In this document: in pieces, positions 10,204 through 43,732 of the stretch
Layout: each line of letters begins with the position of its first letter
How positions within the stretch are numbered: position 1 is the first letter of the stretch
Origin: Escherichia phage kvi
DNA length: 64,000 bases
Reading direction: 5' to 3' (one strand)
Sequence record: MN850615.1
Position numbers and translations under genes: made by a program
Notes under the pieces: generated by a model
Databases searched by the model: none
Told to the model about the DNA's origin: nothing
The model's input: the letters and a program-made list of their open reading frames with translations, nothing else

Positions 10204-10517
10204 TATCCTAAAATCCTCACCTTGCGAACACAGATAGTATTGAGTTCTCGCCGTACCCGTTCTTTTTCATATTCAGGAATTTTATATTCGATACCATCCC
10301 GAACAATTTCAGAAGACCGGATTATGCCAAATTTTCGTTTAGGTACAACCTTGTATTTCGGTTCACCCGCCAATAGACTCTCACAATAATCTATCTGATC
10401 ACACATTGACGCTAACGCAGCATCATGTGTTTCGCAAGTTAGGACGCGACCTTTCGCGTCCACTGAGTATTGAAAGAATCCGTCTTTATCACGATAACAT
10501 ACAGCAAATACATGCAT
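10203..10517 (-). CDS. hypothetical protein (104 aa; dda.1 position)
   Basis: minus-strand ORF, ATGA overlap with dda. Confidence 0.45.
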   Translation of the reverse strand: MHVFAVCYRDKDGFFQYSVDAKGRVLTCETHDAALASMCDQIDYCESLLAGEPKYKVVPKRKFGIIRSSEIVRDGIEYKIPEYEKERVRRELNTICVRKVRILG

Positions 10518-11272
10518 TATAAACCTACCTTCGCTTTCATCAATTCAATCCACGACGCATCAATCGGAAGCCCGTATTTCACGCGTTCTTTTTGTGCTGG
10601 CGTTAAGTTCTCATACTTAGAAAGAGATTCAATCAAAACGCTGGTATATTTTAGCACGATTTCGGTATTGTTTGCAATAGCCTTAAGTTTTTCTTCTTTC
10701 TTGTTGATTTCGCTAAGGGCTTGCTTGAGATCTGCAATTTTCTGATAACGTTCTTCCATACGGAAGAGAGTATTTTTAATCGCTCGCTCGGCTGCCTCTG
10801 CTTTCTCCGGTTCGTTGTGCTTTTTGTGGCGCTCGATTGCTAATTTCTTTTCTTCGATTGCCATTTCCTGATTTTTGATGCGATTCTCGTTAAGTTCGAT
10901 CCACTCGATGTACTTCGCACGTAGGGCAATTTCATCATCAGAAAGTTTACCGTTAGTTCCTAGTTCCTGGATCTCTTTAAGAGATTCGATAGTGTGATTG
11001 CCACGGAAAGAATTGTATTTCAGTTTAACCGGAATTACATTGCCATCAACATATCCCAGATTGCAATCAATGCGCTCTAAGGAGAGTCCGTCATCACCTT
11101 CACCGAAAGCCTCACCTGAATAGGCACAATGAGTCTGGCGGTAAATGTTACGAACAGTGACTAAGCTCATAGAGAAGTCTTTGTTGCGACGTGAAGCACC
11201 AGCCATGATAGAGTTCAGCCGGAAAACAACCAACGCCAATTCTTCGTTAGATTTAAAAGCAAACAGTTTCAT
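10517..11272 (-). CDS. hypothetical protein (251 aa) with coiled-coil C-terminus; Srd-like by position and size only
   Basis: position after dda as for T4 srd; no sequence-level confirmation possible here. Confidence 0.45.
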   Translation of the reverse strand: MKLFAFKSNEELALVVFRLNSIMAGASRRNKDFSMSLVTVRNIYRQTHCAYSGEAFGEGDDGLSLERIDCNLGYVDGNVIPVKLKYNSFRGNHTIESLKEIQELGTNGKLSDDEIALRAKYIEWIELNENRIKNQEMAIEEKKLAIERHKKHNEPEKAEAAERAIKNTLFRMEERYQKIADLKQALSEINKKEEKLKAIANNTEIVLKYTSVLIESLSKYENLTPAQKERVKYGLPIDASWIELMKAKVGL

Positions 11273-14409: not shown

Positions 14410-15045
14410 TCAAGCGAATGTAGAAAGCAAACGTTTTGTTTCTTTCAGTTGTCGTTCAAGATCTTTGCGTTTCTCTTTAAGTTGCATTTTAGCATTATTT
14501 CGCTCTCTTGTAACCTCTTTATCAATGCTCTTATTCCAGTTATCAATATCAGAATAAGTTGGCATACCCAATTCTAGACCTAATGCGGTTGGATACAGGG
14601 TAACAGTCCATAAACCGCTAATCTTCTTAAATAGGTCGGGGTGTAGTGTACTATCTACATCTTCCGGTGTCAACTCTTTTTCTTCTTTCAGTGGTGGGAT
14701 CTCGTCATATGGTTCCAGTGCATTTACTTTAATATCAGATACCTCATCAAAGAATCCGCGTACATCCGCAGGAAATACACAAGCAATTTCCCAACCGTGA
14801 TCACGCAGAGAAGTAATATTTTTCACTCCCCCACCATGTGTGATGATTGATGTGACATTGCCATCAAGGTCCACCGAATTTACGAGAAATGGCTTATCGT
14901 CTGTCAGATCATTATAAAACTGTGCTTCGGCTGTAGTCATCTCCAGAAACAGATCTCGGATCGGACGACCATCAGGTGCGTTACCTTCCTTGAGAGTATA
15001 AAAGCGACTTACGATCCATTTTGGCGGTAAAGCATTAGCGATCAT
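14410..15045 (-). CDS. hypothetical protein (211 aa)
   Basis: minus-strand ORF in the 61-41 interval; basic coiled-coil-like C-terminus. Confidence 0.45.
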   Translation of the reverse strand: MIANALPPKWIVSRFYTLKEGNAPDGRPIRDLFLEMTTAEAQFYNDLTDDKPFLVNSVDLDGNVTSIITHGGGVKNITSLRDHGWEIACVFPADVRGFFDEVSDIKVNALEPYDEIPPLKEEKELTPEDVDSTLHPDLFKKISGLWTVTLYPTALGLELGMPTYSDIDNWNKSIDKEVTRERNNAKMQLKEKRKDLERQLKETKRLLSTFA

Positions 15046-33013: not shown

Positions 33014-33272
33014 AAATCGCCCTCAGTTCTTTATAGCCTCCAATGTGCTCGTTGTCAATGAATATCTGGGGGTATACAAACCGGAGGCTCTTTGAGTTTA
33101 GCCTCCCCGCCAGTTCTTCAATCATATCACGGTCGGGAATAATGTCAACCCCGACCTGCTTGAATACTGGTTTAAGTGTATACGGAATACCCAGATCATC
33201 CAGTAGCTTCATTGCACTAATACAACCATAACAATGATAAGCCTCTTTCGGTATACCGTATATCTCGATCAT
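33003..33272 (-). CDS. nrdH: glutaredoxin-like protein (NrdH-type redoxin)
   Basis: 89 aa thioredoxin-fold with CYGC active site and …PQIFI…IGGY… tail; T4-syntenic with nrdG/nrdD. Confidence 0.6.
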   Translation of the reverse strand: MIEIYGIPKEAYHCYGCISAMKLLDDLGIPYTLKPVFKQVGVDIIPDRDMIEELAGRLNSKSLRFVYPQIFIDNEHIGGYKELRAIYDY

Positions 33273-33769
33273 TTCTCAGCCTTTAATCTTTCTAGTTCTT
33301 CTTCCAGTTCCTTGATCCGTTGGTCACGTTCAAAGTCACGCTGTAACTTAGTGGCGAATACTCGTTTAAACTGATTGTAATCATCGATTTTAAACACTTC
33401 TTCTTCGCCATAGCGACGCACAGAAACTTCGTAGTTATTGAAGAATTGTTGCATCATTGCTTCGGATGATAGCTCTGCTGATACCACTTTAAAATATTGA
33501 TCTTCTGTAGGCGAAAACCAATTACAAGCATAAAGATAAACCTTTTCATTGTCTGGACACTGGTAAGCCTTACCATCGATTTCAATCACAGAAACATACT
33601 CAGGTATACTAGATGAATCAATAGCTAAGACTTTAAACGCACGGTCCCCGATAAACTCGGAGATCACACGATTCGCATCACTGGTTGCAAATGCTTTACG
33701 CGCTTGTTCGTTTTTCCACTGATAGGTCATACCAACAACAAACATATTACCAACCTCGCTCTTTACCAA
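33269..33769 (-). CDS. hypothetical protein (166 aa), paralogue family 1
   Basis: N-terminal G(K/M)TY(T/Q)WK motif shared with the three following ORFs. Confidence 0.45.
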   Translation of the reverse strand: MVKSEVGNMFVVGMTYQWKNEQARKAFATSDANRVISEFIGDRAFKVLAIDSSSIPEYVSVIEIDGKAYQCPDNEKVYLYACNWFSPTEDQYFKVVSAELSSEAMMQQFFNNYEVSVRRYGEEEVFKIDDYNQFKRVFATKLQRDFERDQRIKELEEELERLKAEK

Positions 33770-34571
33770 TCAAAAATTCAACTTCACGACGTTTAATGTC
33801 TTCTTGAAGGTCTTTAATCTTCTGGCGATCTTGCATGATTTCATCCATCTTGTCAAGTGCCGCAATGAAATCATCGAAACGTTCAAAGGTTTTACCTTCA
33901 TTTGCTTCGCCAAATTTAACCATTGTCAGGCCGTAACGACTACTAAACAGACGTTTCAACTGTCCAACGATCTTAGAATCAGTGGTTATAACTTCCAATT
34001 CTTCTACTTCACGAAAGAATTTTCTATCAGAATCAATAAACCAGCTAGTTCCTTTATGGTCTCTATCTTCGGTTGCGCTCATTAGAGTATGGTCTTTACC
34101 ATCAATTTCAATTACATCAATTTGCCCACATGGACGAACATTTTTAACAGTAAAAGGTCTATAATTTATTGCTCGTGCAATAACATAATTAAGGTTAGAT
34201 ACGTTTTCAGCATAATGGCAGAAGTCGGTCATAGCATTCACATCTTTCCAAGTATAAGTTTTACCAACTTCCCATTTCTGGGGAACTTCTTCAACTTCAC
34301 GAAAGAATTTTCTATCAAATGGACTAAAGAAATATGTTGCAGTCCAAATGTCTTTTCCTGTAGCAGTTTTCGCCGTATGATAAACACCGTCTAGCTCTAT
34401 TGCATTAATCCAACCGTTACCCTCGATCTCGATGATGGTAAATGGCTTGTCACCAATAGCTGCACTAATATCGCTGTTAAGTGGAGAAAGAACACCTTCT
34501 CCGTTAGTAATAAACTCAGTTTTAGCGTTTTCATCTTTCCAGGTGTAAGTTTTACCAATTTCCCATTTCAT
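33747..34571 (-). CDS. hypothetical protein (274 aa) with internal tandem duplication, paralogue family 1
   Basis: two ~95-aa repeats each beginning KWE(I/V)GKTYTWKD and ending FDRKFFREVEE. Confidence 0.5.
   Translation of the reverse strand: MKWEIGKTYTWKDENAKTEFITNGEGVLSPLNSDISAAIGDKPFTIIEIEGNGWINAIELDGVYHTAKTATGKDIWTATYFFSPFDRKFFREVEEVPQKWEVGKTYTWKDVNAMTDFCHYAENVSNLNYVIARAINYRPFTVKNVRPCGQIDVIEIDGKDHTLMSATEDRDHKGTSWFIDSDRKFFREVEELEVITTDSKIVGQLKRLFSSRYGLTMVKFGEANEGKTFERFDDFIAALDKMDEIMQDRQKIKDLQEDIKRREVEFLIGKERGW
34001..34316 (-). repeat. intragenic direct repeat (~30 bp, 1 mismatch) marking a domain duplication
   Basis: tcttc(t/a)acttcacgaaagaattttctatca at 34001-34030 and 34287-34316. Confidence 0.7.
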
Positions 34572-34583
34572 AATATATTCCCC

Positions 34584-35084
34584 TTAACCGATTTTATCAA
34601 GTTCGTTTAATGCTTTCTCTGCTTCCTGTATAGCTTGCACTCTTTCCGGCATTTTGTCAAGAAAATCTTTCAACTCTTCAAAACTGGAGATATGACGCAA
34701 GGCATTAGCACCGATAGCCGCATGTGATTTGCATTCAAAGCGAATTTTATAATTATCCATCGCCAATTTGAGAAGGTCTATTAGATCATATTCATGACCA
34801 GGCAATAAAACTTCTTTGAAGCACGCTCGGTCGCCATCGGAAAACCATATATTATCACCAACATCGATAGAACTAATATAATCCCCTTCGTGATTATAGA
34901 TTGAACGTACATTACCCCAACGGTCTACCGTAGCGACAGTAAATGGTTTATCTAGATATGTAAACACACCATCAATATTAGGTTTTTGTTCGTAACGCCA
35001 ACAATCACGCAAAATGCGCTTTTCGTCCTCACCAACCAACTTATATGTCTTCCCTTCTTCCCATTTCATAATATCATCTCTCAT
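34584..35084 (-). CDS. hypothetical protein (166 aa), paralogue family 1
   Basis: N-terminal KWEEGKTYK motif; coiled-coil-like C-terminus. Confidence 0.45.
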   Translation of the reverse strand: MRDDIMKWEEGKTYKLVGEDEKRILRDCWRYEQKPNIDGVFTYLDKPFTVATVDRWGNVRSIYNHEGDYISSIDVGDNIWFSDGDRACFKEVLLPGHEYDLIDLLKLAMDNYKIRFECKSHAAIGANALRHISSFEELKDFLDKMPERVQAIQEAEKALNELDKIG

Positions 35085-35610
35085 TTTTGATACGTGATTC
35101 TAATTGGATCATACGGTCGCGCGTTTGCTTGTATTCGCGGATAGCACCGATCCGGCTAGGCATACCATCCAGTACGCTCTTAATACCTTCTATGGTAGTA
35201 ATTTTGGCAATGCTATTATGTAACCCCATCTTATCGATCAACTGAATGTCGTAGGCTTCCATAAGCAGACCCAGACGTTCTAAAGTTAGGTCTTCTTCTT
35301 TTTCTTCCGATTCTGGAATCTTAGGTTCAATAGTAACTTCGGTAAAGAAACGACGCTCACCCGACCAAAACCACACACCGGAACAGCCAATAGGGGATTC
35401 TTTTAACGTCATAGAGTCGAAATTACTATTATTGGTAGTAATTTCTCTAACATCACCATCATCGTCAAGGTCTTCTACCCTAAACGGGCGACCAGCCAAC
35501 AAGTCAACAATACATCTGTTAATAGACGACGAAAATTTAGTCAGTTCGGCTTTCGACGCTTCGCATTCAATCTTGTAAGTTTTACCAACTTCCCATTCCA
35601 TAATAATCAC
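35074..35610 (-). CDS. hypothetical protein (178 aa), paralogue family 1
   Basis: N-terminal EWEVGKTYK motif. Confidence 0.45.
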   Translation of the reverse strand: MIIMEWEVGKTYKIECEASKAELTKFSSSINRCIVDLLAGRPFRVEDLDDDGDVREITTNNSNFDSMTLKESPIGCSGVWFWSGERRFFTEVTIEPKIPESEEKEEDLTLERLGLLMEAYDIQLIDKMGLHNSIAKITTIEGIKSVLDGMPSRIGAIREYKQTRDRMIQLESRIKNER

Positions 35611-35611
35611 C

Positions 35612-36121
35612 TCAAATAATTTTCACTGGAATACTATTAACAATCTTGTATTGTACTTGATTGTCAGACCCCCGCCACGGCTTCTTCGTTGGCATATCTT
35701 TAATATAACGCCCATCGATGAACATGTCAACTGATTCTACAATTTTTCTTTGCTCATCATTCAATTGGTCAAGGGTATAACCAGACCATAGCCAAATATC
35801 TTTATTTGGCATCCATGATTTTACTTCATCGATGATCCGCTGTACACCCTTTAAATTGCGTTTATACAATGGATCGCCACCTAAGAATGTTAGCCCCTGA
35901 ATAAAATCAGGTCTAAGCAGATCCAGAATCAATCCCATTGTATCATCGGTGAATGGTTCCCCGTTCTTAGGATTGAGTAGGCTAGCATTAAAGCAACCAT
36001 CACATGCGTGTGAACATCCGGTAACGTAAAGGGAGACTCTCACTCCCTCACCGTTCACCATATCACAATCTTTAATATCGGCATAGCGTAGCTTGCCGTA
36101 TGTATCAGAACTCATATTCAA
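35612..36121 (-). CDS. nrdG: anaerobic ribonucleotide reductase activating protein (radical SAM)
   Basis: 169 aa; CxxxCxxC cluster (CSHACDGC); adjacent to nrdD. Confidence 0.9.
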   Translation of the reverse strand: MNMSSDTYGKLRYADIKDCDMVNGEGVRVSLYVTGCSHACDGCFNASLLNPKNGEPFTDDTMGLILDLLRPDFIQGLTFLGGDPLYKRNLKGVQRIIDEVKSWMPNKDIWLWSGYTLDQLNDEQRKIVESVDMFIDGRYIKDMPTKKPWRGSDNQVQYKIVNSIPVKII

Positions 36122-36257
36122 TTACCCCGAACTCGTTTACAATCTGCGCTTTATAGTAACCACCGCGAGATGCTAATAGATAAGCTGGGCTTAGGTATTC
36201 GTATTCACGGATTTCTACTTGTGCGTTTTCAGTTTCCCAAATCAGTAAAGTCCACAT
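36105..36257 (-). CDS. small hypothetical protein (50 aa)
   Basis: ATG at 36257 preceded by the conserved leader and GGAGAAUCAAAU RBS; track ORF over-extended into the promoter. Confidence 0.35.
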   Translation of the reverse strand: MWTLLIWETENAQVEIREYEYLSPAYLLASRGGYYKAQIVNEFGVIEYEF

Positions 36258-36299
36258 ATTTGATTCTCCTGTAAAGTTGTATCTCGTCTTGATGAATAT

Positions 36300-36328
36300 A
36301 GTATAGGGGATCGCGAGATCCCCGTCAA
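36300..36328 (-). promoter_or_regulatory. sigma70-type promoter (PeSL-like)
   Basis: TTGACG (36328-36323), 17-nt spacer, TATACT (36305-36300); GGGGGATC…GATCCCC palindrome. Confidence 0.4.
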
Positions 36329-36332
36329 GCAT

Positions 36333-36881
36333 TTATTTTAAATTTTTTCGAATGTATTCAGACCATTCCTTCCCTGTCATTTCGGACCCATTCTGGAAAC
36401 TGAAATATTCATACGGCATCGAGTCAAGATAAAACAGGATCATACATCGCGCCATATAATACCAATCACGATTAAAGTAAACTACGTTATCGCCAGTACC
36501 ATCAGCACCTTTATCATAACCATCGCGGGTACGGGCGACCCATTGAATAGTATCATTTTTCTCACGGATCGTAACAGGTTCCCAATATCCAGCACATCCA
36601 GCATGACCACACGAACAAGTCAGGAAATATTGACCTTTTGCTTTGTTGTCATCCCATTCACGATGGATTGGTTCGATCTCGTGAAACAGTGCTAAGCAAT
36701 CATGATTATGCAACACTGGCTTACCATCAATCAATGCATGGAATGTATACAAACGACCAGTAGACAAATAGCTATCCTCACGCTCAACCAGTTCAATAGC
36801 AATCTTTTTAGCTCGTTCTTTGTGTCGTTGTGCTTTACGCTTACGGTTTAATGATTTCATATTCACCTCACACATTATCAA
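36333..36881 (-). CDS. hypothetical protein (182 aa)
   Basis: minus-strand ORF between nrdD and nrdG (T4 has mobD here); Cys cluster CSCGHAGC. Confidence 0.45.
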   Translation of the reverse strand: MIMCEVNMKSLNRKRKAQRHKERAKKIAIELVEREDSYLSTGRLYTFHALIDGKPVLHNHDCLALFHEIEPIHREWDDNKAKGQYFLTCSCGHAGCAGYWEPVTIREKNDTIQWVARTRDGYDKGADGTGDNVVYFNRDWYYMARCMILFYLDSMPYEYFSFQNGSEMTGKEWSEYIRKNLK

Positions 36882-37423
36882 AGGTCGCGATATAGTACAT
36901 TATGAAAATGAGAACTTGCATTACCAATATTGTAGATAATAAATTCTTCATCCGGCGCTTGCGCTACAAATTGAGTATGAGCAACCGCCACAACCTTAAA
37001 AATACGATCCGTGATCTTGTGTTTAATTTCGGCTCCTACTTCCATAGGAACATATTCATGTGTTTCTGTTTCAGTCGCAAAACAGCCATCTTCTTCATAA
37101 GCACGAACAAATCGATCGCAATCAGTACGCTTAACAAATTCAAGAGTATACAATTCTCGTGAATTGTCGGTATAGACTAATACAGAATTATTCTGATAGC
37201 GAATCACATACAGGTTATTATCATCGTCAATTACGCAAAAGCTACGGATTTGTGTTCCTTCGCCTTTACTCCAGCAGATATTAACCACAGTTCCTCTAAT
37301 AAAAAAACTTTCCTTTAAATTAAAACTAGCCAATGTGCTAGCGTGCATTTTAACAACAACACCATCGCCAATTTCCAGTTTACGAAGTTTAACTTCTTTG
37401 TTCAGTACACAAAACATCATCAT
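36878..37423 (-). CDS. hypothetical protein (181 aa)
   Basis: minus-strand ORF downstream of promoter and nrdD terminator. Confidence 0.45.
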   Translation of the reverse strand: MMMFCVLNKEVKLRKLEIGDGVVVKMHASTLASFNLKESFFIRGTVVNICWSKGEGTQIRSFCVIDDDNNLYVIRYQNNSVLVYTDNSRELYTLEFVKRTDCDRFVRAYEEDGCFATETETHEYVPMEVGAEIKHKITDRIFKVVAVAHTQFVAQAPDEEFIIYNIGNASSHFHNVLYRDL

Positions 37424-37452
37424 GTTGTCCTCTCGTTGTTTTCGATGTGAGC

Positions 37453-37480
37453 ATTATACATTAGCTAATCATGTTGTCAA
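37453..37480 (-). promoter_or_regulatory. sigma70-type early promoter (PeSL-like)
   Basis: TTGACA (37480-37475), 16-nt spacer, TATAAT (37458-37453). Confidence 0.5.
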
Positions 37481-37486
37481 CACCCC

Positions 37487-37518
37487 AAAACGAAAAAGCC
37501 GACCCTTTCGGATCGGCT
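37487..37518 (-). terminator. rho-independent terminator after nrdD
   Basis: AGCCGAUCC-GAAA-GGGUCGGCU hairpin followed by UUUUUCGUUUU on minus strand. Confidence 0.7.
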
Positions 37519-37523
37519 GAAAT

Positions 37524-39386
37524 TTACATGTGCTTAACGCGGTTTACCATCTCGGAGTGTTTCCCGTGGTTAAATGGACGCAGATCAACAGATCCAAGAT
37601 ATCCACTAACGCGACGGATAACATTCATCTTTTCCAGATTGTCATTGCCGCAATCAGGACAAACAAAACCAGACTCGGTTGCTCTCATTTCCTTAGTAGA
37701 TCCGCATACATGACATACATCAGAAGGAGTATTAACACCGAAGTAGTGCAATTTATCCATTGCATAGTCTACTACAGTTTCAAGACCTTTCAGGTTGTTT
37801 TTCATGTCTGGGAACTCAACATAAGAGATCATGCCACCGGACGCCAGCCAGTGATAATCTTTCTCAAAGTCGATTTTCTCAAATGGAGTGACTTTCCGGT
37901 CTACGTCAAGGTGGAATGAGTTGGTGTACCAGTCTTTATCGGTAGCACCCTTAACAATACCAAATTTCTCTCTGTCCAGTCGATTAAATCGATAGCAAAG
38001 ACTCTCGGCTGGCGTACCGTAAAGACTAAACCCAAGTCCGGTTTCGTCCTTCCATTTTTCAGTATAATGACGCAAGATCTTAAGAATATGTTTACCGTAT
38101 CGCTGCGCATCTTCCGAATCAAACGGATGAACACCAAACAGGACGCTCAATACCTCATGTAAACCAATATATCCAAGAGAGATACTAGCGCGACCATCTT
38201 TCAGCACTTCCAAAATTTCATCGTTTTGATGAATACGGAAAAATGCACCTTCTGTATACAGCACCGGAGCAACATTGGCTTTAGCCCCTTTTAAAGCGTC
38301 TACGCGACTCATGAGCGCATCAAAGCAAATAGGCATACGATTAGCTAGCTCTTGTTCGAATAGCTCAATTCTGCGCATTACAGACGCTTTACCAGCACGA
38401 CGAGCGGCAATAAGGGCAATACGCGGAAGATTCAGAGTCACAACACCTAAGTTATTACGTCCGTCTAATACTTCTTCGCCTTTCTCATTATGCCACACAC
38501 CCAGGAAGCTACGACAACCCATCGGGCTAACCGGAACACTAGATCCAGTGATACTACGGTTATTCTTCGCAGAGATATAATCAGGGTAAAGACGCTTACT
38601 AGAACATTCCAATGCAAGTTGCTTAATGTCGTAGTTCGGATCTTCCGGTTTAAGGTTTAATCCTTCTTCTAAGAACATCACCAGCTTAGGAAACACCGGA
38701 GTGATACCATCTTTACCTAAACCTTTAGTTCGAACGTTCAGGATCGCTTTCTGAATCAGTTTTTCTTCCCAGCTAGTACCCATACCAAAGGTTAAAGTCA
38801 CAAAAGGAGTTTGACCGTTGGTGGAGAACAAAGTGTTGATTTCATATTCCAACGCTTGATACCCGTCTAACGTTTCTTTTTCTGTCTTCTCTTGTGCATA
38901 GAGAGTATCAGCTTTGATTCCGTAGGTTTCGGCATCAGCAAGGTGTTTATGATATGTTTTCTTAACATACGGTGCTAACACCTGATCAATGTTTGCAATT
39001 GTGGTCCCGCCATATTGATGACTTGCCACCTGTGCGATAATTTGAGCGGTTACAGCACAAGCAACGCCGATTGATTTCGGACTTTCGATTTGTGCGCTAC
39101 CCAATTTAAAACCATTCTCTAGCATGTCTTTAAGATTAACAAGACAGCAGTTAGTAAACGGCATAGCGGGTGCATAATCCATATCATGATAATGAATATC
39201 ACCGTCTACATGCGCTTTATAGATGTGCTCAGGTAACACGGTTTTAGCAATCTGTTTAGACACAGCACCAGCAATCAGATCTCGACGTGTCGGGAATGTT
39301 CGCGCGTCTTTGTTCGCGTTCTCTTTGCTTACTTCGTTTTCTTTACCCGTTGCGATCTCTGTAATGTCTTTGATTAGTTTTTCCAT
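37524..39386 (-). CDS. nrdD: anaerobic ribonucleoside-triphosphate reductase
   Basis: 620 aa; C-terminal glycyl-radical motif RVSGYLG and CxxC zinc site (CHVCGS…CPDCG); uninterrupted ORF. Confidence 0.95.
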   Translation of the reverse strand: MEKLIKDITEIATGKENEVSKENANKDARTFPTRRDLIAGAVSKQIAKTVLPEHIYKAHVDGDIHYHDMDYAPAMPFTNCCLVNLKDMLENGFKLGSAQIESPKSIGVACAVTAQIIAQVASHQYGGTTIANIDQVLAPYVKKTYHKHLADAETYGIKADTLYAQEKTEKETLDGYQALEYEINTLFSTNGQTPFVTLTFGMGTSWEEKLIQKAILNVRTKGLGKDGITPVFPKLVMFLEEGLNLKPEDPNYDIKQLALECSSKRLYPDYISAKNNRSITGSSVPVSPMGCRSFLGVWHNEKGEEVLDGRNNLGVVTLNLPRIALIAARRAGKASVMRRIELFEQELANRMPICFDALMSRVDALKGAKANVAPVLYTEGAFFRIHQNDEILEVLKDGRASISLGYIGLHEVLSVLFGVHPFDSEDAQRYGKHILKILRHYTEKWKDETGLGFSLYGTPAESLCYRFNRLDREKFGIVKGATDKDWYTNSFHLDVDRKVTPFEKIDFEKDYHWLASGGMISYVEFPDMKNNLKGLETVVDYAMDKLHYFGVNTPSDVCHVCGSTKEMRATESGFVCPDCGNDNLEKMNVIRRVSGYLGSVDLRPFNHGKHSEMVNRVKHM

Positions 39387-39399
39387 TGTATCACCTATT

Positions 39400-39420
39400 A
39401 AAAAGCGGGATTTCTCCCGC
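39400..39420 (-). terminator. rho-independent terminator upstream of nrdD
   Basis: GCGGGA-GAAA-UCCCGC hairpin followed by UUUUU on minus strand. Confidence 0.55.
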
Positions 39421-39430
39421 TCGTTGATAG

Positions 39431-39925
39431 TTATTTTACCAGTTCTGCTAATTCTTTTTCTTTAGCTTCTAGTTCAGCTTTAAGCTGTTTAATCTCTTGT
39501 CGCTTCTTATTAGCGGCTTCTTGCTTACTATTTCGGATAACCTGATCTAGATACAACTCCCAATCCTGAATATTTTTGATAATGTAACCGTCAACATTAA
39601 TTGGTCGGAGATTCAGTACAGCTTCCAGTTTAGTTGCAAAAACTTTAATTGCTGGTGTGAAGTATTCATACTCGTTATCTTCAAACCAATAACCTAGACT
39701 TGCATTCTCAATACGAAGATGAAGTTTAAGATCAAGGTCTTTATCATCGGTATATAGGTCTTTTACACACCCCATAGAATTAACAACAACTTTAAAACGA
39801 ATTTTATCTACACCACCAAACACATCTTCAAGAATATCAGCAATTGAGCTATTAGCGCAAGATTGGTCGCTGAATGCGTCAAGATTTTCTTTAGTTACAG
39901 TATACCAAACATCTTGTACCCACAT
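39431..39925 (-). CDS. hypothetical protein (164 aa)
   Basis: minus-strand ORF with GAGGA RBS downstream of a PeSL promoter. Confidence 0.45.
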   Translation of the reverse strand: MWVQDVWYTVTKENLDAFSDQSCANSSIADILEDVFGGVDKIRFKVVVNSMGCVKDLYTDDKDLDLKLHLRIENASLGYWFEDNEYEYFTPAIKVFATKLEAVLNLRPINVDGYIIKNIQDWELYLDQVIRNSKQEAANKKRQEIKQLKAELEAKEKELAELVK

Positions 39926-39955
39926 AATATAATCCTCTCGTTGTTAAGTGGGAGT

Positions 39956-39983
39956 ATTATAGCATACTCCCTTCGCATGTCAA
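39956..39983 (-). promoter_or_regulatory. sigma70-type early promoter (PeSL)
   Basis: TTGACA (39983-39978), 16-nt spacer, TATAAT (39961-39956); GGGAGTA…TACTCCC inverted repeat over the -10. Confidence 0.55.
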
Positions 39984-41158
39984 ACACTAACTTTTTTCTT
40001 TACTGCTTTCACCTTCTGGCGAATTGCTCGAATCTCTTCGATCTCTTTTTCAGTCTCTTTAACAATTTCTTTGCGATTCTGAATATCTGTATCGAGATTA
40101 TCATCAAGTTTAGGCAGCATGTCAATCAAGAACTTTTTAAGGTCTTTCAGGTTTCGAATAACAGCACCTTCGCCCATTACCGCAACACCCACACCATCCG
40201 GCAGATCACCAAACAGCTTAACCAGTTCAGACAGATGATCATGATCTTCTAGTGCTTCTTCCGGTTCAGATGGCAGTTCAACAAAGTTATAACGTTCATC
40301 ATTGCTGATCAAGTGATACCAGCAAAGCCCGAAAGATTTCGGTGTATATTCTACACCATCAATTTCAACCGCGTCAACACTTCCATAATCATCTACTTTA
40401 GTTACCTTAAATCCTTGTCCCAGCTTTTGAACAATTTCAACAACATGACTTGATACAGTTTCAGCGGTAAACCAATATGGCAAATTATGCTGATTTGGCT
40501 TGTAGCGTTCACCTACTTTAAATCTCTGACCATCCGCTTGCATAGCATGAAATTGTTGTTTCGTGATTTCCGCGAAGTATTCAAATTCGCTACCGTCAAA
40601 CAAGCAATTCCATTGATCACAAAAACGATCTGCCTTAACGGTTTCACCTTTCGCGGTGATCATGGTAGCTGATCCGTGCAATTCTTCTTCAACTAAAAAG
40701 CCATATTCGACAAAATCAACAAGTTTCATGGCTTCTTTGTGCTCTGGGTCATGCTCTCCCCAGAATCGCTTAAATTCTTGCAAACCTTCTGGGGTAAACG
40801 AATAACATTTACCTTTTTCAAAGTAAGTCGGCATTGCATCCTCTTTCTTGTTCATCGCTTCGTATGCCTCTTTTGAGATACGTTTAAAGTATTTGCGCTC
40901 ATTGTGCATAATCATAGTAGACCAATAATAAACGATATCCTCAGCGGAATAAACTACATCTCCAGCTTCAATAGTAATAACATGACCGTGGTCATCTTTT
41001 TCTAATACTTTAAAGCCCTTTTCTACGATTTCAGCAACCCGAATATGACCACGGCGCGAAGCATCGGTCAGAATAATTGAATAGCGAGAAAAGTCTAGAA
41101 ACTCATCTTTACCGCCTTCACGGAATGCATAGTAATGACCTTCAAAGAATTTAGCCAT
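39980..41158 (-). CDS. hypothetical multi-repeat protein (392 aa), paralogue family 2
   Basis: three internal modules GF(K/L)V…G.V……ERKYF shared with the next two ORFs. Confidence 0.5.
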   Translation of the reverse strand: MAKFFEGHYYAFREGGKDEFLDFSRYSIILTDASRRGHIRVAEIVEKGFKVLEKDDHGHVITIEAGDVVYSAEDIVYYWSTMIMHNERKYFKRISKEAYEAMNKKEDAMPTYFEKGKCYSFTPEGLQEFKRFWGEHDPEHKEAMKLVDFVEYGFLVEEELHGSATMITAKGETVKADRFCDQWNCLFDGSEFEYFAEITKQQFHAMQADGQRFKVGERYKPNQHNLPYWFTAETVSSHVVEIVQKLGQGFKVTKVDDYGSVDAVEIDGVEYTPKSFGLCWYHLISNDERYNFVELPSEPEEALEDHDHLSELVKLFGDLPDGVGVAVMGEGAVIRNLKDLKKFLIDMLPKLDDNLDTDIQNRKEIVKETEKEIEEIRAIRQKVKAVKKKVSV

Positions 41159-41189
41159 AATATAATCCTCTCGTTGTTTAGACGGGAGT

Positions 41190-41218
41190 ATCTTACTACT
41201 CCCGTTTCATCATGTCAA
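41190..41218 (-). promoter_or_regulatory. sigma70-type early promoter (PeSL)
   Basis: TTGACA (41218-41213), 17-nt spacer, TAAGAT (41195-41190); GGGAGTA…TACTCCC inverted repeat. Confidence 0.5.
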
Positions 41219-41799
41219 GCGTTAAATGACTTTTGGATCTCTTTCAGTTCAGCTACTTTATCGGCGCTGAATTTAGCGTAGGCATCATGTCGAATAATTT
41301 CACTTTCAAGAAAGGTTTCCAGCCGAGATCTATTTTCAATAAGGAACTCTTTCAGGTCTTCCGCGTTCTTGATAAAGATTTTATTGTCGGTAATGTCATC
41401 TTCAATCGCAAAGGAGATAGAGCGAACTTTACCAAACAAGTTAATCAGATCTTCCAGCGATTCTTCATTCTTAACTGGTTTCATTTCTTCAAACTGCTTT
41501 TTAGTGATGCGTTTAAAGTATTTGCGCTCGTTTGCAGCAATCAGAACAGATGCACCTTCATACCCATGAGTTTCTACCAGATACACACGCCCCATCGCAT
41601 CAACAGTGAGAACTTTAAAGCCGTTACAAAGCACGTCATACAAGAACTTATTATGTTGCGGACATCGTTTGATAAATTCTGCGGCTGTTTCTGCATTACG
41701 GAAAGTGTAATAACGACCTCGTTCAAAAACAGCATCATTTGAAGACTTAGCCGGATACAATTTATACGTTTTCTGTACCATAATATAATCCTCTATCAT
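41215..41799 (-). CDS. hypothetical protein (194 aa), paralogue family 2
   Basis: module …NGFKVLTVDAMGRVYLVE…ERKYFKRITKKQFEEM…. Confidence 0.45.
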   Translation of the reverse strand: MIEDYIMVQKTYKLYPAKSSNDAVFERGRYYTFRNAETAAEFIKRCPQHNKFLYDVLCNGFKVLTVDAMGRVYLVETHGYEGASVLIAANERKYFKRITKKQFEEMKPVKNEESLEDLINLFGKVRSISFAIEDDITDNKIFIKNAEDLKEFLIENRSRLETFLESEIIRHDAYAKFSADKVAELKEIQKSFNA

Positions 41800-42128
41800 T
41801 TCACTAATTGAACAGCACGGAACAGAATGCGCTCACACGGAAGCAGCATAAATTCCCAACGCGGATCAAAGTCTTTAGCGGTGTATGTTTTCCCATCAAC
41901 CGAGATTTCACTTACATAACCAACAGGTGACACTTTAAGAACAGTAAACCCATTCTTGATGACTTCGTAAGTATCTTTCACCCCTTCGTATTCATCATCT
42001 AAGAAGTCTTTATGTGCTTGCTCAGATTTAAAAACATAGGCCACACCGGATTTAAACATCTTACGCATTGTTGATTCTCCTTCTTGATTAGATGGGAGTA
42101 TTTTACTACTCCCATTTCTTATTGTCAA
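41796..42128 (-). CDS. hypothetical protein (110 aa), paralogue family 2
   Basis: module …NGFTVLKVSPVGYVSEISVDGKTYT…. Confidence 0.4.
   Translation of the reverse strand: MTIRNGSSKILPSNQEGESTMRKMFKSGVAYVFKSEQAHKDFLDDEYEGVKDTYEVIKNGFTVLKVSPVGYVSEISVDGKTYTAKDFDPRWEFMLLPCERILFRAVQLVK
42099..42127 (-). promoter_or_regulatory. sigma70-type early promoter (PeSL)
   Basis: TTGACA (42127-42122), 17-nt spacer, TAAAAT (42104-42099); GGGAGTA…TACTCCC inverted repeat. Confidence 0.5.
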
Positions 42129-42629: not shown

Positions 42630-42923
42630 TTAACCATTAATCTTGTTTTTGACTACAAAGGATCTGAACTCATCAAAACCACCTATATAATCACCATTAT
42701 AGAAAATCTGCGGCATGGTGGCAATAACTTCTACCCCTGCGCGATCCTGAATGTCGGCAATGATAGAATCAATCTTTACCGGACGACCGTTTTCGTCTAC
42801 ACCATCATTAACCGGAATGTAGATGTAAGGGATCTTACGCGATTCACAAAGGCGCTTTGCATTCTGGCAATACTTACAGTTGTAACCTTCAAAACCAAAA
42901 ATTTCTACCATATTATACCTCAA
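42630..42923 (-). CDS. nrdC: thioredoxin/glutaredoxin NrdC
   Basis: CKYCQNAKRL active-site region and …MPQIF…IGGFDEF… tail match T4 NrdC as recalled. Confidence 0.8.
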   Translation of the reverse strand: MRYNMVEIFGFEGYNCKYCQNAKRLCESRKIPYIYIPVNDGVDENGRPVKIDSIIADIQDRAGVEVIATMPQIFYNGDYIGGFDEFRSFVVKNKING

Positions 42924-43732
42924 TCTACGTTAGTTACATAAACTTCTTGCGTATCAGAAGACTTGCCACCTGAACGATCTAGGCAATAGGTCTTATTCAA
43001 CAGGACGCAGTTTAGATCATTCCGCTTGATAAAGTCAAGAAGATGATCATTTACCTTTCCCTTATGATGCGTGACATTACTGATACCAAACTGAAAACCA
43101 CGCGCCATAATAGATTCTACCCACTGATAGAATTTAATCTCTTCCTCGTCACTCCAGAACTTATTATATTCCGCAGAAGTGATAAGATACGGCGGGTCCA
43201 AATAAACGAAATCACCTGGCAAGATCTCGATCTCGTCATAGCGACCAGACGTAAAACTGATTCGACCGTCTTTGTTTTCTTCCTTAAAATTCAGGACACG
43301 CTCTACCGCGTTTTCGTTAAAAGTCCGGCGACCAAAATTAGCATTAAATTCGCCCTTCCGGTTATGGCGGTTAATGTTGCTAAAACTATGCTGAATCAAC
43401 ACAAACAGCGATAGCGGATCTGGATTCTCGTTATACTTCTTACGGAATGTCATGTAAGCGTCTTTATCTTCGCGAGACAAACCATTTTCGGCAATAATCC
43501 GCTTGATCGTAGAAACCGGATCAGGACACTCGTCAATGGCCTTGTAAGCGTCAATTAATTGGTGATCATAGTCATTAGCCAGCACATCCCCTTCGACGTA
43601 CAGAGACACGCTCAAGCCGCCACAAAAGGCATCAACAAAGCGGTTATAGTGCTTAGGGAAATACTTACTAACACCTGGTAATAGCTTTTCCTTATTGCCA
43701 GTATAGGGAATTAAACCTAATGCTTTCTTCAT
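42920..43732 (-). CDS. dam: DNA adenine methyltransferase (Dam, N6-adenine)
   Basis: 270 aa; …NRFVD.FCGGLSVSL… SAM-binding region and DPPY catalytic motif; colinear with T4 Dam as recalled. Confidence 0.93.
   Translation of the reverse strand: MKKALGLIPYTGNKEKLLPGVSKYFPKHYNRFVDAFCGGLSVSLYVEGDVLANDYDHQLIDAYKAIDECPDPVSTIKRIIAENGLSREDKDAYMTFRKKYNENPDPLSLFVLIQHSFSNINRHNRKGEFNANFGRRTFNENAVERVLNFKEENKDGRISFTSGRYDEIEILPGDFVYLDPPYLITSAEYNKFWSDEEEIKFYQWVESIMARGFQFGISNVTHHKGKVNDHLLDFIKRNDLNCVLLNKTYCLDRSGGKSSDTQEVYVTNVD

Follow-up and report, generated by a model that had tools for sequence, protein, structure and literature searches.

Two arrays of GoF-like genes around the anaerobic ribonucleotide reductase genes of Escherichia phage kvi and the probable exchange of their N-terminal domains

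The anaerobic ribonucleotide reductase genes nrdD and nrdG of Escherichia phage kvi (MN850615.1) are bracketed by groups of small genes with a repeated domain, and the locus raises the question of whether these are two separate families recently amplified in tandem, one of them with a fresh internal duplication, as an initial annotation of the DNA had proposed, or whether their diversity has another origin. The window analysed here is a stretch of 64,000 nucleotides (nt) of this phage, within which family members were counted, and by its sequence the phage is an RB49-like coliphage of the genus Krischvirus, family Straboviridae. Sequence comparison makes it almost certain that both groups belong to one known phage family, the relatives of T4 GoF and Frd.2, and the arrays are a lineage-specific expansion of this GoF/Frd.2 family of T4-type early proteins. 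The variation within them arises through recombinational replacement of domain cassettes and not through change in copy number, and it is highly probable that the N-terminal modules are replaced as whole cassettes among near-identical genomes.

One family in two arrays

The window holds at least nine GoF-like genes with 12 modules, the module being about 90 amino acids (aa) long and present in one, two or three copies per gene. Eight of the genes form two same-strand arrays bracketing the reductase genes and the ninth, Y, lies 19 kb away. All genes of the region are on the minus strand. The first array is transcribed in the order endonuclease VII, F2c, F2b, F2a, X and then nrdD, and the second in the order nrdG, F1d, F1c, F1b, F1a and then nrdH, so that the four genes called family 1 are downstream of nrdG and the three called family 2 are upstream of nrdD. 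Two unrelated ORFans and a small DUF7170 open reading frame (ORF) occupy the space between nrdD and nrdG. The GoF-like genes are listed with the E values of the profile searches described below.

41796..42068, minus strand: F2c, GoF-like, module only, 90 aa; profile E 2e-14; ATG at 42068 after a PeSL and a Shine-Dalgarno sequence
41215..41781, minus strand: F2b, GoF-like, 188 aa; module 41494-41736; profile E 8e-12
39980..41158, minus strand: F2a, three-module GoF-like, 392 aa; modules 40871-41158, 40559-40834 and 40253-40534; profile domains E 1e-39 to 1e-26
39431..39925, minus strand: X, GoF-like, 164 aa; module 39644-39925, coiled-coil tail; leave-one-out E 4e-6
35074..35601, minus strand: F1d, GoF-like, 175 aa; module 35317-35601, then C-terminal domain and long terminal helix; leave-one-out E 4e-17
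34584..35069, minus strand: F1c, GoF-like, 161 aa; module 34800-35069; leave-one-out profile E 3e-12
33747..34571, minus strand: F1b, two-module GoF-like, 274 aa; module 1 34284-34571, module 2 33990-34283, C-terminal domain 33747-33989
33269..33745, minus strand: F1a, GoF-like, 158 aa; module 33470-33745; leave-one-out profile E 1e-11
14410..15045, minus strand: Y, distant ninth GoF-like gene, 211 aa; module, linker, coiled-coil tail; leave-one-out E 8e-7

The four adjacent family-1 genes recognised by the initial annotation are borne out at 33269-35601, with N termini of the (K/E)WExGKTY type that are degenerate in F1a (FVVGMTYQWK), as are its three family-2 genes at 39980-42068, which carry three, one and one modules of the form GF(K/T/L)V...E(R)xxF. 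A TTG start at 42128 falls within an early-promoter stem-loop element (PeSL), and the start of F2c is therefore placed at ATG 42068. The F2a gene, which is named frd.2 or 'goF mRNA metabolism modulator' in RB49 (RefSeq), has a length of 391-392 aa in every homologue cluster. X directly adjoins family 2 behind a PeSL of its own and matches phrog_3710, which is common to family 1.

Leave-one-out profiles, each built from the remaining genes and searched against the 442 ORFs of the window, recover every gene at E 1e-29 to 8e-7 with the best non-member at E >= 0.002, and the repeats are thus alignable at the protein level and not merely similar in composition. The division into two separate families is not upheld. 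A search with the family-1 profile detects every family-2 gene (E 5e-12 to 4e-5), searching in the other direction yields E 3e-12 to 3e-3, the hhalign comparison of family 1 with family 2 returns a probability of 97.3% (E 2e-11, 81 columns), and the two groups match the same families in PHROG, some of which bear the name "goF mRNA metabolism modulator". The homology extends to T4, with the N-terminal domain of T4 GoF (residues 4-91, full length) matching a profile built from the window modules only at E 1.9e-13 and T4 Frd.2 matching it at E 2.2e-5; T4 MotB.1 gave no significant match to this profile (E 0.18). Pairwise identity between modules is 15-39%, the two F1b copies being exceptional at 51%. 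Homology of the C-terminal domain with T4 GoF/Frd.2 is not significant in the profiles built here, and alignments extend through the C-terminal region in the PHROG matches only. Two ORFs on the minus strand, 58311-58643 and 10206-10544, are the best non-members in every leave-one-out search (E 0.002-0.03) and from their sequences may be very divergent GoF-like modules.

A full-library profile search gave 85 cluster representatives at E <= 0.001 among 1.84 billion. Hits longer than 500 aa were left out as false positives, all six of those scanned being Ig/Fn3/Big_2 repeat proteins or having no Pfam family, and the remaining 69 clusters comprise 59 with one module, eight with two and two with three (10/69 multi-module), the named multi-module members coming from T4-type phages of Morganella, Enterobacter and Yersinia. 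Structure matches in BFVD number 57 at E <= 0.001; those with names are all uncharacterised proteins, for the most part from T4-type phages, and the hosts of the matched phages include Aeromonas, Citrobacter, Edwardsiella, Proteus, Pectobacterium, Serratia and Yersinia. One of these matches, 'Dc2' of phage ECD7 (211 aa), may be the counterpart of Y, to which it was matched by length and not by sequence. Pfam, NCBIfam and PDB sequence searches with all nine proteins gave no usable match, and a word-index protein search with the module alignment found eight proteins only.

The family was described by Kim et al. (2025, PMC12152347) as T4-type early proteins in which a predicted five-stranded "LSm-like" or SH3-like barrel at the N terminus is joined by a flexible linker to a C-terminal domain that varies, FeoA and IdeR being the nearest solved folds of GoF. 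The window proteins have in common with T4 GoF and Frd.2, as well as with MotB.1, the homologous N-terminal domain of about 90 aa with a predicted bent five-stranded barrel and FeoA/IdeR neighbours, the same order of N-terminal domain, flexible linker and variable C-terminal domain, an acidic character, and a predicted place among the early genes of T4-type phages. Substantial differences occur in number and arrangement, as T4 has three scattered single-module genes whereas the window has a minimum of nine, with eight placed in the two arrays, and two window proteins have two and three tandem modules, unlike the T4 family. A long helix, absent from T4 GoF and Frd.2, terminates the C-terminal parts of the window proteins, and in a further departure from the family as described, the window-type N-terminal domains are polymorphic cassettes among near-identical phages.

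Loss and probable exchange of N-terminal modules

Fifty-eight phage records match the 9.3-kb region at 95-98% identity, 55 of these over at least 80% of its length, and the same layout is present in 55 phage records and many independent metagenome contigs, which disposes of an assembly or sequencing error as the source of the duplication. The locus comparison comprised the window, RB49, GEC-3S, ECD7 and 12 further genomes or contigs (16 loci); the main sample came from an exact look-up of NrdG in assemblies, most of the compared loci encoding an NrdG identical to that of the window, and a scan of IMG/VR with NrdG contributed two loci. NrdD, NrdG, NrdH and endonuclease VII are 97-100% identical in amino acid sequence in 15 of the 16 loci, the locus L004 being the most diverged (NrdH 93%). 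Against this background the N-terminal modules drop mosaically to 41-60% identity, whereas the C-terminal domains attached to them remain at 86-100%; between the F1c proteins of the window and of RB49, for instance, identity is 42% over the N-terminal domain but 97% over the C-terminal one. Modules of the 16 genomes clustered at 85% identity fall into the following allele classes.

F1d slot: three allele classes, minimum identity 44%
F1c slot: three allele classes, minimum identity 44%
F1b module 2 slot: three allele classes, absent in three genomes, minimum identity 41%
F1a slot: four allele classes, minimum identity 58%
X slot: three allele classes, minimum identity 47%
Each family-2 module: one or two allele classes, minimum identity 74% or more

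The classes reassort independently from gene to gene. At the slots F1d, F1c and F1a the classes are B, A and C in locus L011 and A, B and A in L013, the latter having a rare class at X besides. Divergence sets in around codon 5 and ends where the C-terminal domain is joined, near codon 95-100; 60-nt windows within these tracts are 30-65% identical compared with 96-100% in the flanks. Saturated synonymous sites in the tracts beside near-identical flanks mean that the alleles were imported by recombination and did not evolve in situ.

Two other sources of this diversity were considered and rejected. Whole-module exchange between slots by conversion among paralogues is contradicted by the allele clusters, none of which spans two slots, and mutagenesis of the type caused by diversity-generating retroelements does not account for divergence that is domain-wide, includes indels and has saturated synonymous sites.

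The C-terminal half of F2b (41215-41493) varies too, falling to 60-66% in six of the 16 genomes where the N-terminal domain is at 79-83%, and the replaced unit in F2b therefore differs from that of the family-1 genes. The ORFans at 36333-36860 and 36878-37423 (minus strand) in the nrdD-nrdG interval, which do not belong to the family, are diverged in single loci (orf175 48% identical in L016, orf181 76% in L004), and whole-gene replacement therefore also occurs in the region. In L016 (1945-3122) the three-module F2a is split into ORFs of 143 and 249 aa and in L020 (4467-4938) F1a is split into ORFs of 64 and 105 aa; these are occasional inactivations or sequencing errors.

Module 2 of F1b is the only module that comes and goes. 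The two domain copies noted in 33747-34571 are present, with lengths of 96 and 98 aa and profile domain E values of 1e-42 and 1e-44, and the repeat marking them at the DNA level exists as well, but it is 31 nt long and not 30, and its first coordinate had been placed 2 nt off.

33999..34029, no strand assigned: border direct repeat copy 1, at the end of module 2; encodes DRKFFREVEE; 31 nt with one mismatch to copy 2
34287..34317, no strand assigned: border direct repeat copy 2, at the end of module 1; 31 nt, one mismatch, spacing 288

The duplication that created these copies is not fresh. The copies are 57.6% identical in nucleotide and 51% in amino acid sequence, and by hand count the identical residues of the interior share the same codon in 10 of 27 cases, which is about the expectation from codon usage, whereas 17 of 20 degenerate codons are identical at the borders. 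Randomised synonymous sites inside near-identical borders mean that the interior is old and the borders are homogeneous. The two-module F1b occurs genus-wide and also in relatives with identity as low as 65%, and Shigella phage Sf20 has a protein that matches that of the window at 100% identity.

The border repeats serve as deletion endpoints, as the 178-aa variants P0058 and P0059 represent an exact 96-aa (288-nt) deletion between the 31-nt repeats, and these borders also enclose a module swap in UPWr_E1-like phages, which have a different module 2 there (277 aa) and a module 1 and C-terminal domain nearly as in the window. F1b forms of 181-185 aa also occur. In L020 a chimeric gene joins the start of F1d, the end of an alternative module and the F1b C-terminal domain, with three genes collapsed into one; this is a single observation from one short-read contig and is to be read with caution.

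A further family of 32-nt direct repeats, 78-94% identical, is located at 34253-34284, 34544-34575, 35042-35073 and 35574-35605, where it spans, in four of the five modules of family 1, the start codon and the first few codons (M-K/E-W-E-x-G-K-T-Y), and it could be a 5' recombination anchor.

Predicted fold and early promoters

The AlphaFold2 model of F1d, made from a 19-sequence paralogue alignment, has an N-terminal barrel with predicted local distance difference test (pLDDT) scores of 70-91 in which a strand is followed by two helices, three strands, a short helix and a last strand, and beyond it a low-confidence linker (residues 94-103) leads into the C-terminal domain and a helix at 147-174. 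Both modules of the F1b model have this topology with pLDDT of about 85-90, followed by a linker of low pLDDT (191-196) and a terminal helix at 232-271. The strands modelled for F1d and F1b (8-11, 40-45, 51-56, 59-62 and 86-89) agree with a bent five-stranded antiparallel sheet, and the module is accordingly modelled as an SH3-like β-barrel with two helices inserted after strand 1. A short linker connects the modules to a small C-terminal domain, after which comes a terminal helix of 30-40 aa, with the exception of F2c, which consists of the module only.

The solved folds nearest to the models are FeoA, the SH3-like domain of IdeR and the Mib-REP tandem, the two-module F1b model matching the two-repeat Mib REP domain in Foldseek at E 5e-4. 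Scores against the Mind bomb 1 REP domain (4tse), FeoA and the DtxR/IdeR C-terminal domain are low (TM-scores 0.2-0.3), there is no sequence similarity (7-15% identity), and the helix pair after strand 1 is foreign to those folds; judged from the models, the relation is one of fold resemblance and not of membership. Neither Foldseek list contains an Hfq or Sm protein, and Sm/LSm membership, judged by closest fold together with ring oligomer, does not hold. The isoelectric point (pI) is 4.8-5.2 for seven of the nine proteins, and the N-terminal barrels are mostly acidic (pI 4.3-5.3).

Signals for early expression consist of consensus sigma-70/PeSL sites before F2c, F2a and X and a weaker predicted promoter upstream of nrdG.

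42069..42128, minus strand: PeSL before F2c; pattern match; hairpin -15.1 kcal/mol, z -3.4
41159..41218, minus strand: PeSL before F2a; pattern match; hairpin -17.4 kcal/mol, z -4.1
39926..39983, minus strand: PeSL before X; TTGACA-16-TATAAT, score 12/12; hairpin -14 kcal/mol, z -2.3; overlaps the F2a stop codon
36300..36328, minus strand: predicted sigma-70-type promoter upstream of nrdG; TTGACG-17-TATACT; GEC-3S has an annotated promoter at the corresponding position

The PeSL pattern, TTGACA and TAnnAT with a spacer of about 16-17 and a GGGAGTA/TACTCCC hairpin, occurs exactly three times in the 64 kb compared with 0 expected from 100 shuffles, and the hairpins have folding z values of -2.3 to -4.1. 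Each site is intergenic, matches the sigma-70 consensus, has its -10 region covered by a stable hairpin and carries a Shine-Dalgarno sequence and ATG at the 3' end. The statement that each family-2 gene lies behind its own PeSL thus stands for F2c and F2a, two of the three, and fails for F2b (41215-41781), which has no PeSL in front and starts 14 nt past the F2c stop. Family 1 has no PeSL anywhere, its genes lying directly behind nrdG, with which they probably share the promoter-like site 36300-36328 as one unit. PeSLs were shown experimentally to be functional early promoters in RB49 and phi1 (Arbiol et al. 2010, PMC2839356), and the window resembles the cassettes described there in having three complete sites and in belonging to the hyperplastic regions with described shuffling. 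In a noticeable difference, whole genes move between PeSLs in that shuffling, whereas here the exchanged unit is a domain within a gene and is bounded by coding sequence, namely the start-codon region and the domain junction.

Among the neighbouring genes, the small DUF7170 ORF (36105-36332, minus strand) overlaps the nrdG start, is conserved in all relatives and has 75 aa here through an upstream start compared with 50 aa in relatives. An HNH/AP2 homing-endonuclease gene (251 aa) is inserted between nrdC and dam in GEC-3S and four sampled contigs and is absent in RB49 and in the window (42920-42925, at the junction of nrdC 42630-42923 and dam 42920-43732). This is a presence/absence polymorphism of a mobile endonuclease, for which the loci L001, L011, L013, L016 and L019 are listed.

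Possible roles of the exchangeable barrel

The explanation favoured overall, and considered rather probable, is a GoF-like expansion in which swappable N-terminal specificity barrels are combined with a constant C-terminal part. The swapping of N-terminal domains points to a contest with the host, and the divergent N-terminal alleles in near-identical genomes fit the role in host interaction that the initial annotation had ascribed to fast-evolving proteins, the recent amplification it had invoked being unsupported. The exchangeable, mostly acidic barrel would be the specificity domain, a role that is plausible but held tentatively, and may bind a variable target of the host or of a rival element early in infection, the target being a protein or else a complex of RNA and protein. 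Dimerisation or docking would be provided by the constant C-terminal part, in particular its terminal helix, GoF and MotB.1 migrating partly as dimers (PMC12152347), and the multi-module proteins would combine several specificities.

A more specific form of this proposal is doubtful. It holds that the barrels are a polymorphic specificity repertoire in which each allele class neutralises or hijacks a different host or prophage factor, with the constant C-terminal helix as the common effector or dimerisation element and the border motifs as recombination anchors. If true, the targets could, for example, belong to anti-phage defence systems or to the machinery of RNA decay and termination, the borders within coding sequence would let domains be swapped, stacked into two- and three-module proteins or dropped, and the system would be a domain-level counterpart of PeSL gene shuffling.

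Several points weigh against reading the locus as a GoF-like expansion with swappable specificity barrels. Between family 1 on the one hand and family 2, X and Y on the other, the C-terminal domains show no significant homology in the profiles built here (E 0.14-0.33), the family-2 modules vary far less (74-100%) than those of family 1 and X, the chimeric array of L020 rests on one contig assembled from short reads, and no binding partner or phenotype is known for any family member. Mosaic replacement also affects other genes of the hyperplastic region, as in orf175 of L016, and such mosaicism in non-family genes of T4-type phages means that mosaicism alone is no proof of an arms race.

Among the alternatives, the one that survives best, although still unlikely, is that the proteins are RNA-binding Hfq-like (LSm-type) post-transcriptional regulators that alter the stability of phage or host mRNA, with paralogues and alleles recognising different transcripts. 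The GoF(D25Y) variant of T4 lengthens the half-life of a reporter RNA with the gene 41 leader, the sole phenotype reported, the N-terminal domain has been called LSm-like (PMC12152347), and RefSeq and PHROGs name F2a and F2b 'goF mRNA metabolism modulator'. This RNA effect is however that of a gain-of-function mutant, and wild-type GoF and MotB.1 have little effect on RNA, direct binding not having been demonstrated (PMC12152347). The phenotype defining goF in T4 (an effect on mRNA level, or suppression of the restriction in a rho mutant) is likewise tied to the mutant alleles D25Y and G84R. AlphaFold3 gives no confident ring-shaped multimers (PMC12152347), and for the window proteins both the acidity of seven of the nine and the fold neighbours are unfavourable to an Hfq-like role.

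It is improbable that the genes are dispensable ORFans of a hyperplastic region undergoing neutral drift and replacement, with a mosaicism that reflects frequent T4-type recombination without selection for specificity. The occasional replacement of orf175, orf181 and orf489 in L004 and L016, the broken copies of F2a in L016 and of F1a in L020, and the non-essential nature of the T4 homologues (PMC12152347) would agree with such churn. Reading frames are nevertheless intact in nearly all genomes, the replacement tracts end at the domain boundary and leave a well conserved C-terminal domain, all alleles keep the family core residues, and the family persists across many genera of T4-type phages. 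The recent tandem amplification of two separate families with a fresh in-gene duplication and an evolving copy number is the least probable account, since the adjacency of the genes on one strand, the short near-identical DNA patches at module borders and the existence of single-module variants of 178-185 aa are set against paralogous modules with 15-39% identity, saturated synonymous sites between the F1b copies, the homology of the two families, and a gene number and order that are the same in 16 of 17 loci, the collapsed array of L020 being the exception.

Membership of the family is already published, whereas the domain-level allelic cassettes most of all, and with them the arrays and the tandem multi-module proteins, go beyond the work of Kim et al., in which RB49-like phages, multi-module forms and arrays are not mentioned (PMC12152347); no other description of arrays, multi-module proteins or allelic cassettes was found in the searchable literature. 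For over 40 years GoF has stood as an unexplained early protein of T4, and recognition of its family dates only from 2025. The RB49-like phages provide a natural experiment, with nine paralogues and sharply different N-terminal alleles on an almost identical background, which singles out the N-terminal barrel as the portion subject to diversifying exchange and supplies allele sets ready for host-range, pull-down and RNA-binding tests. The modular shuffling of the hyperplastic regions in T4-type phages extends below the level of the gene to single protein domains.

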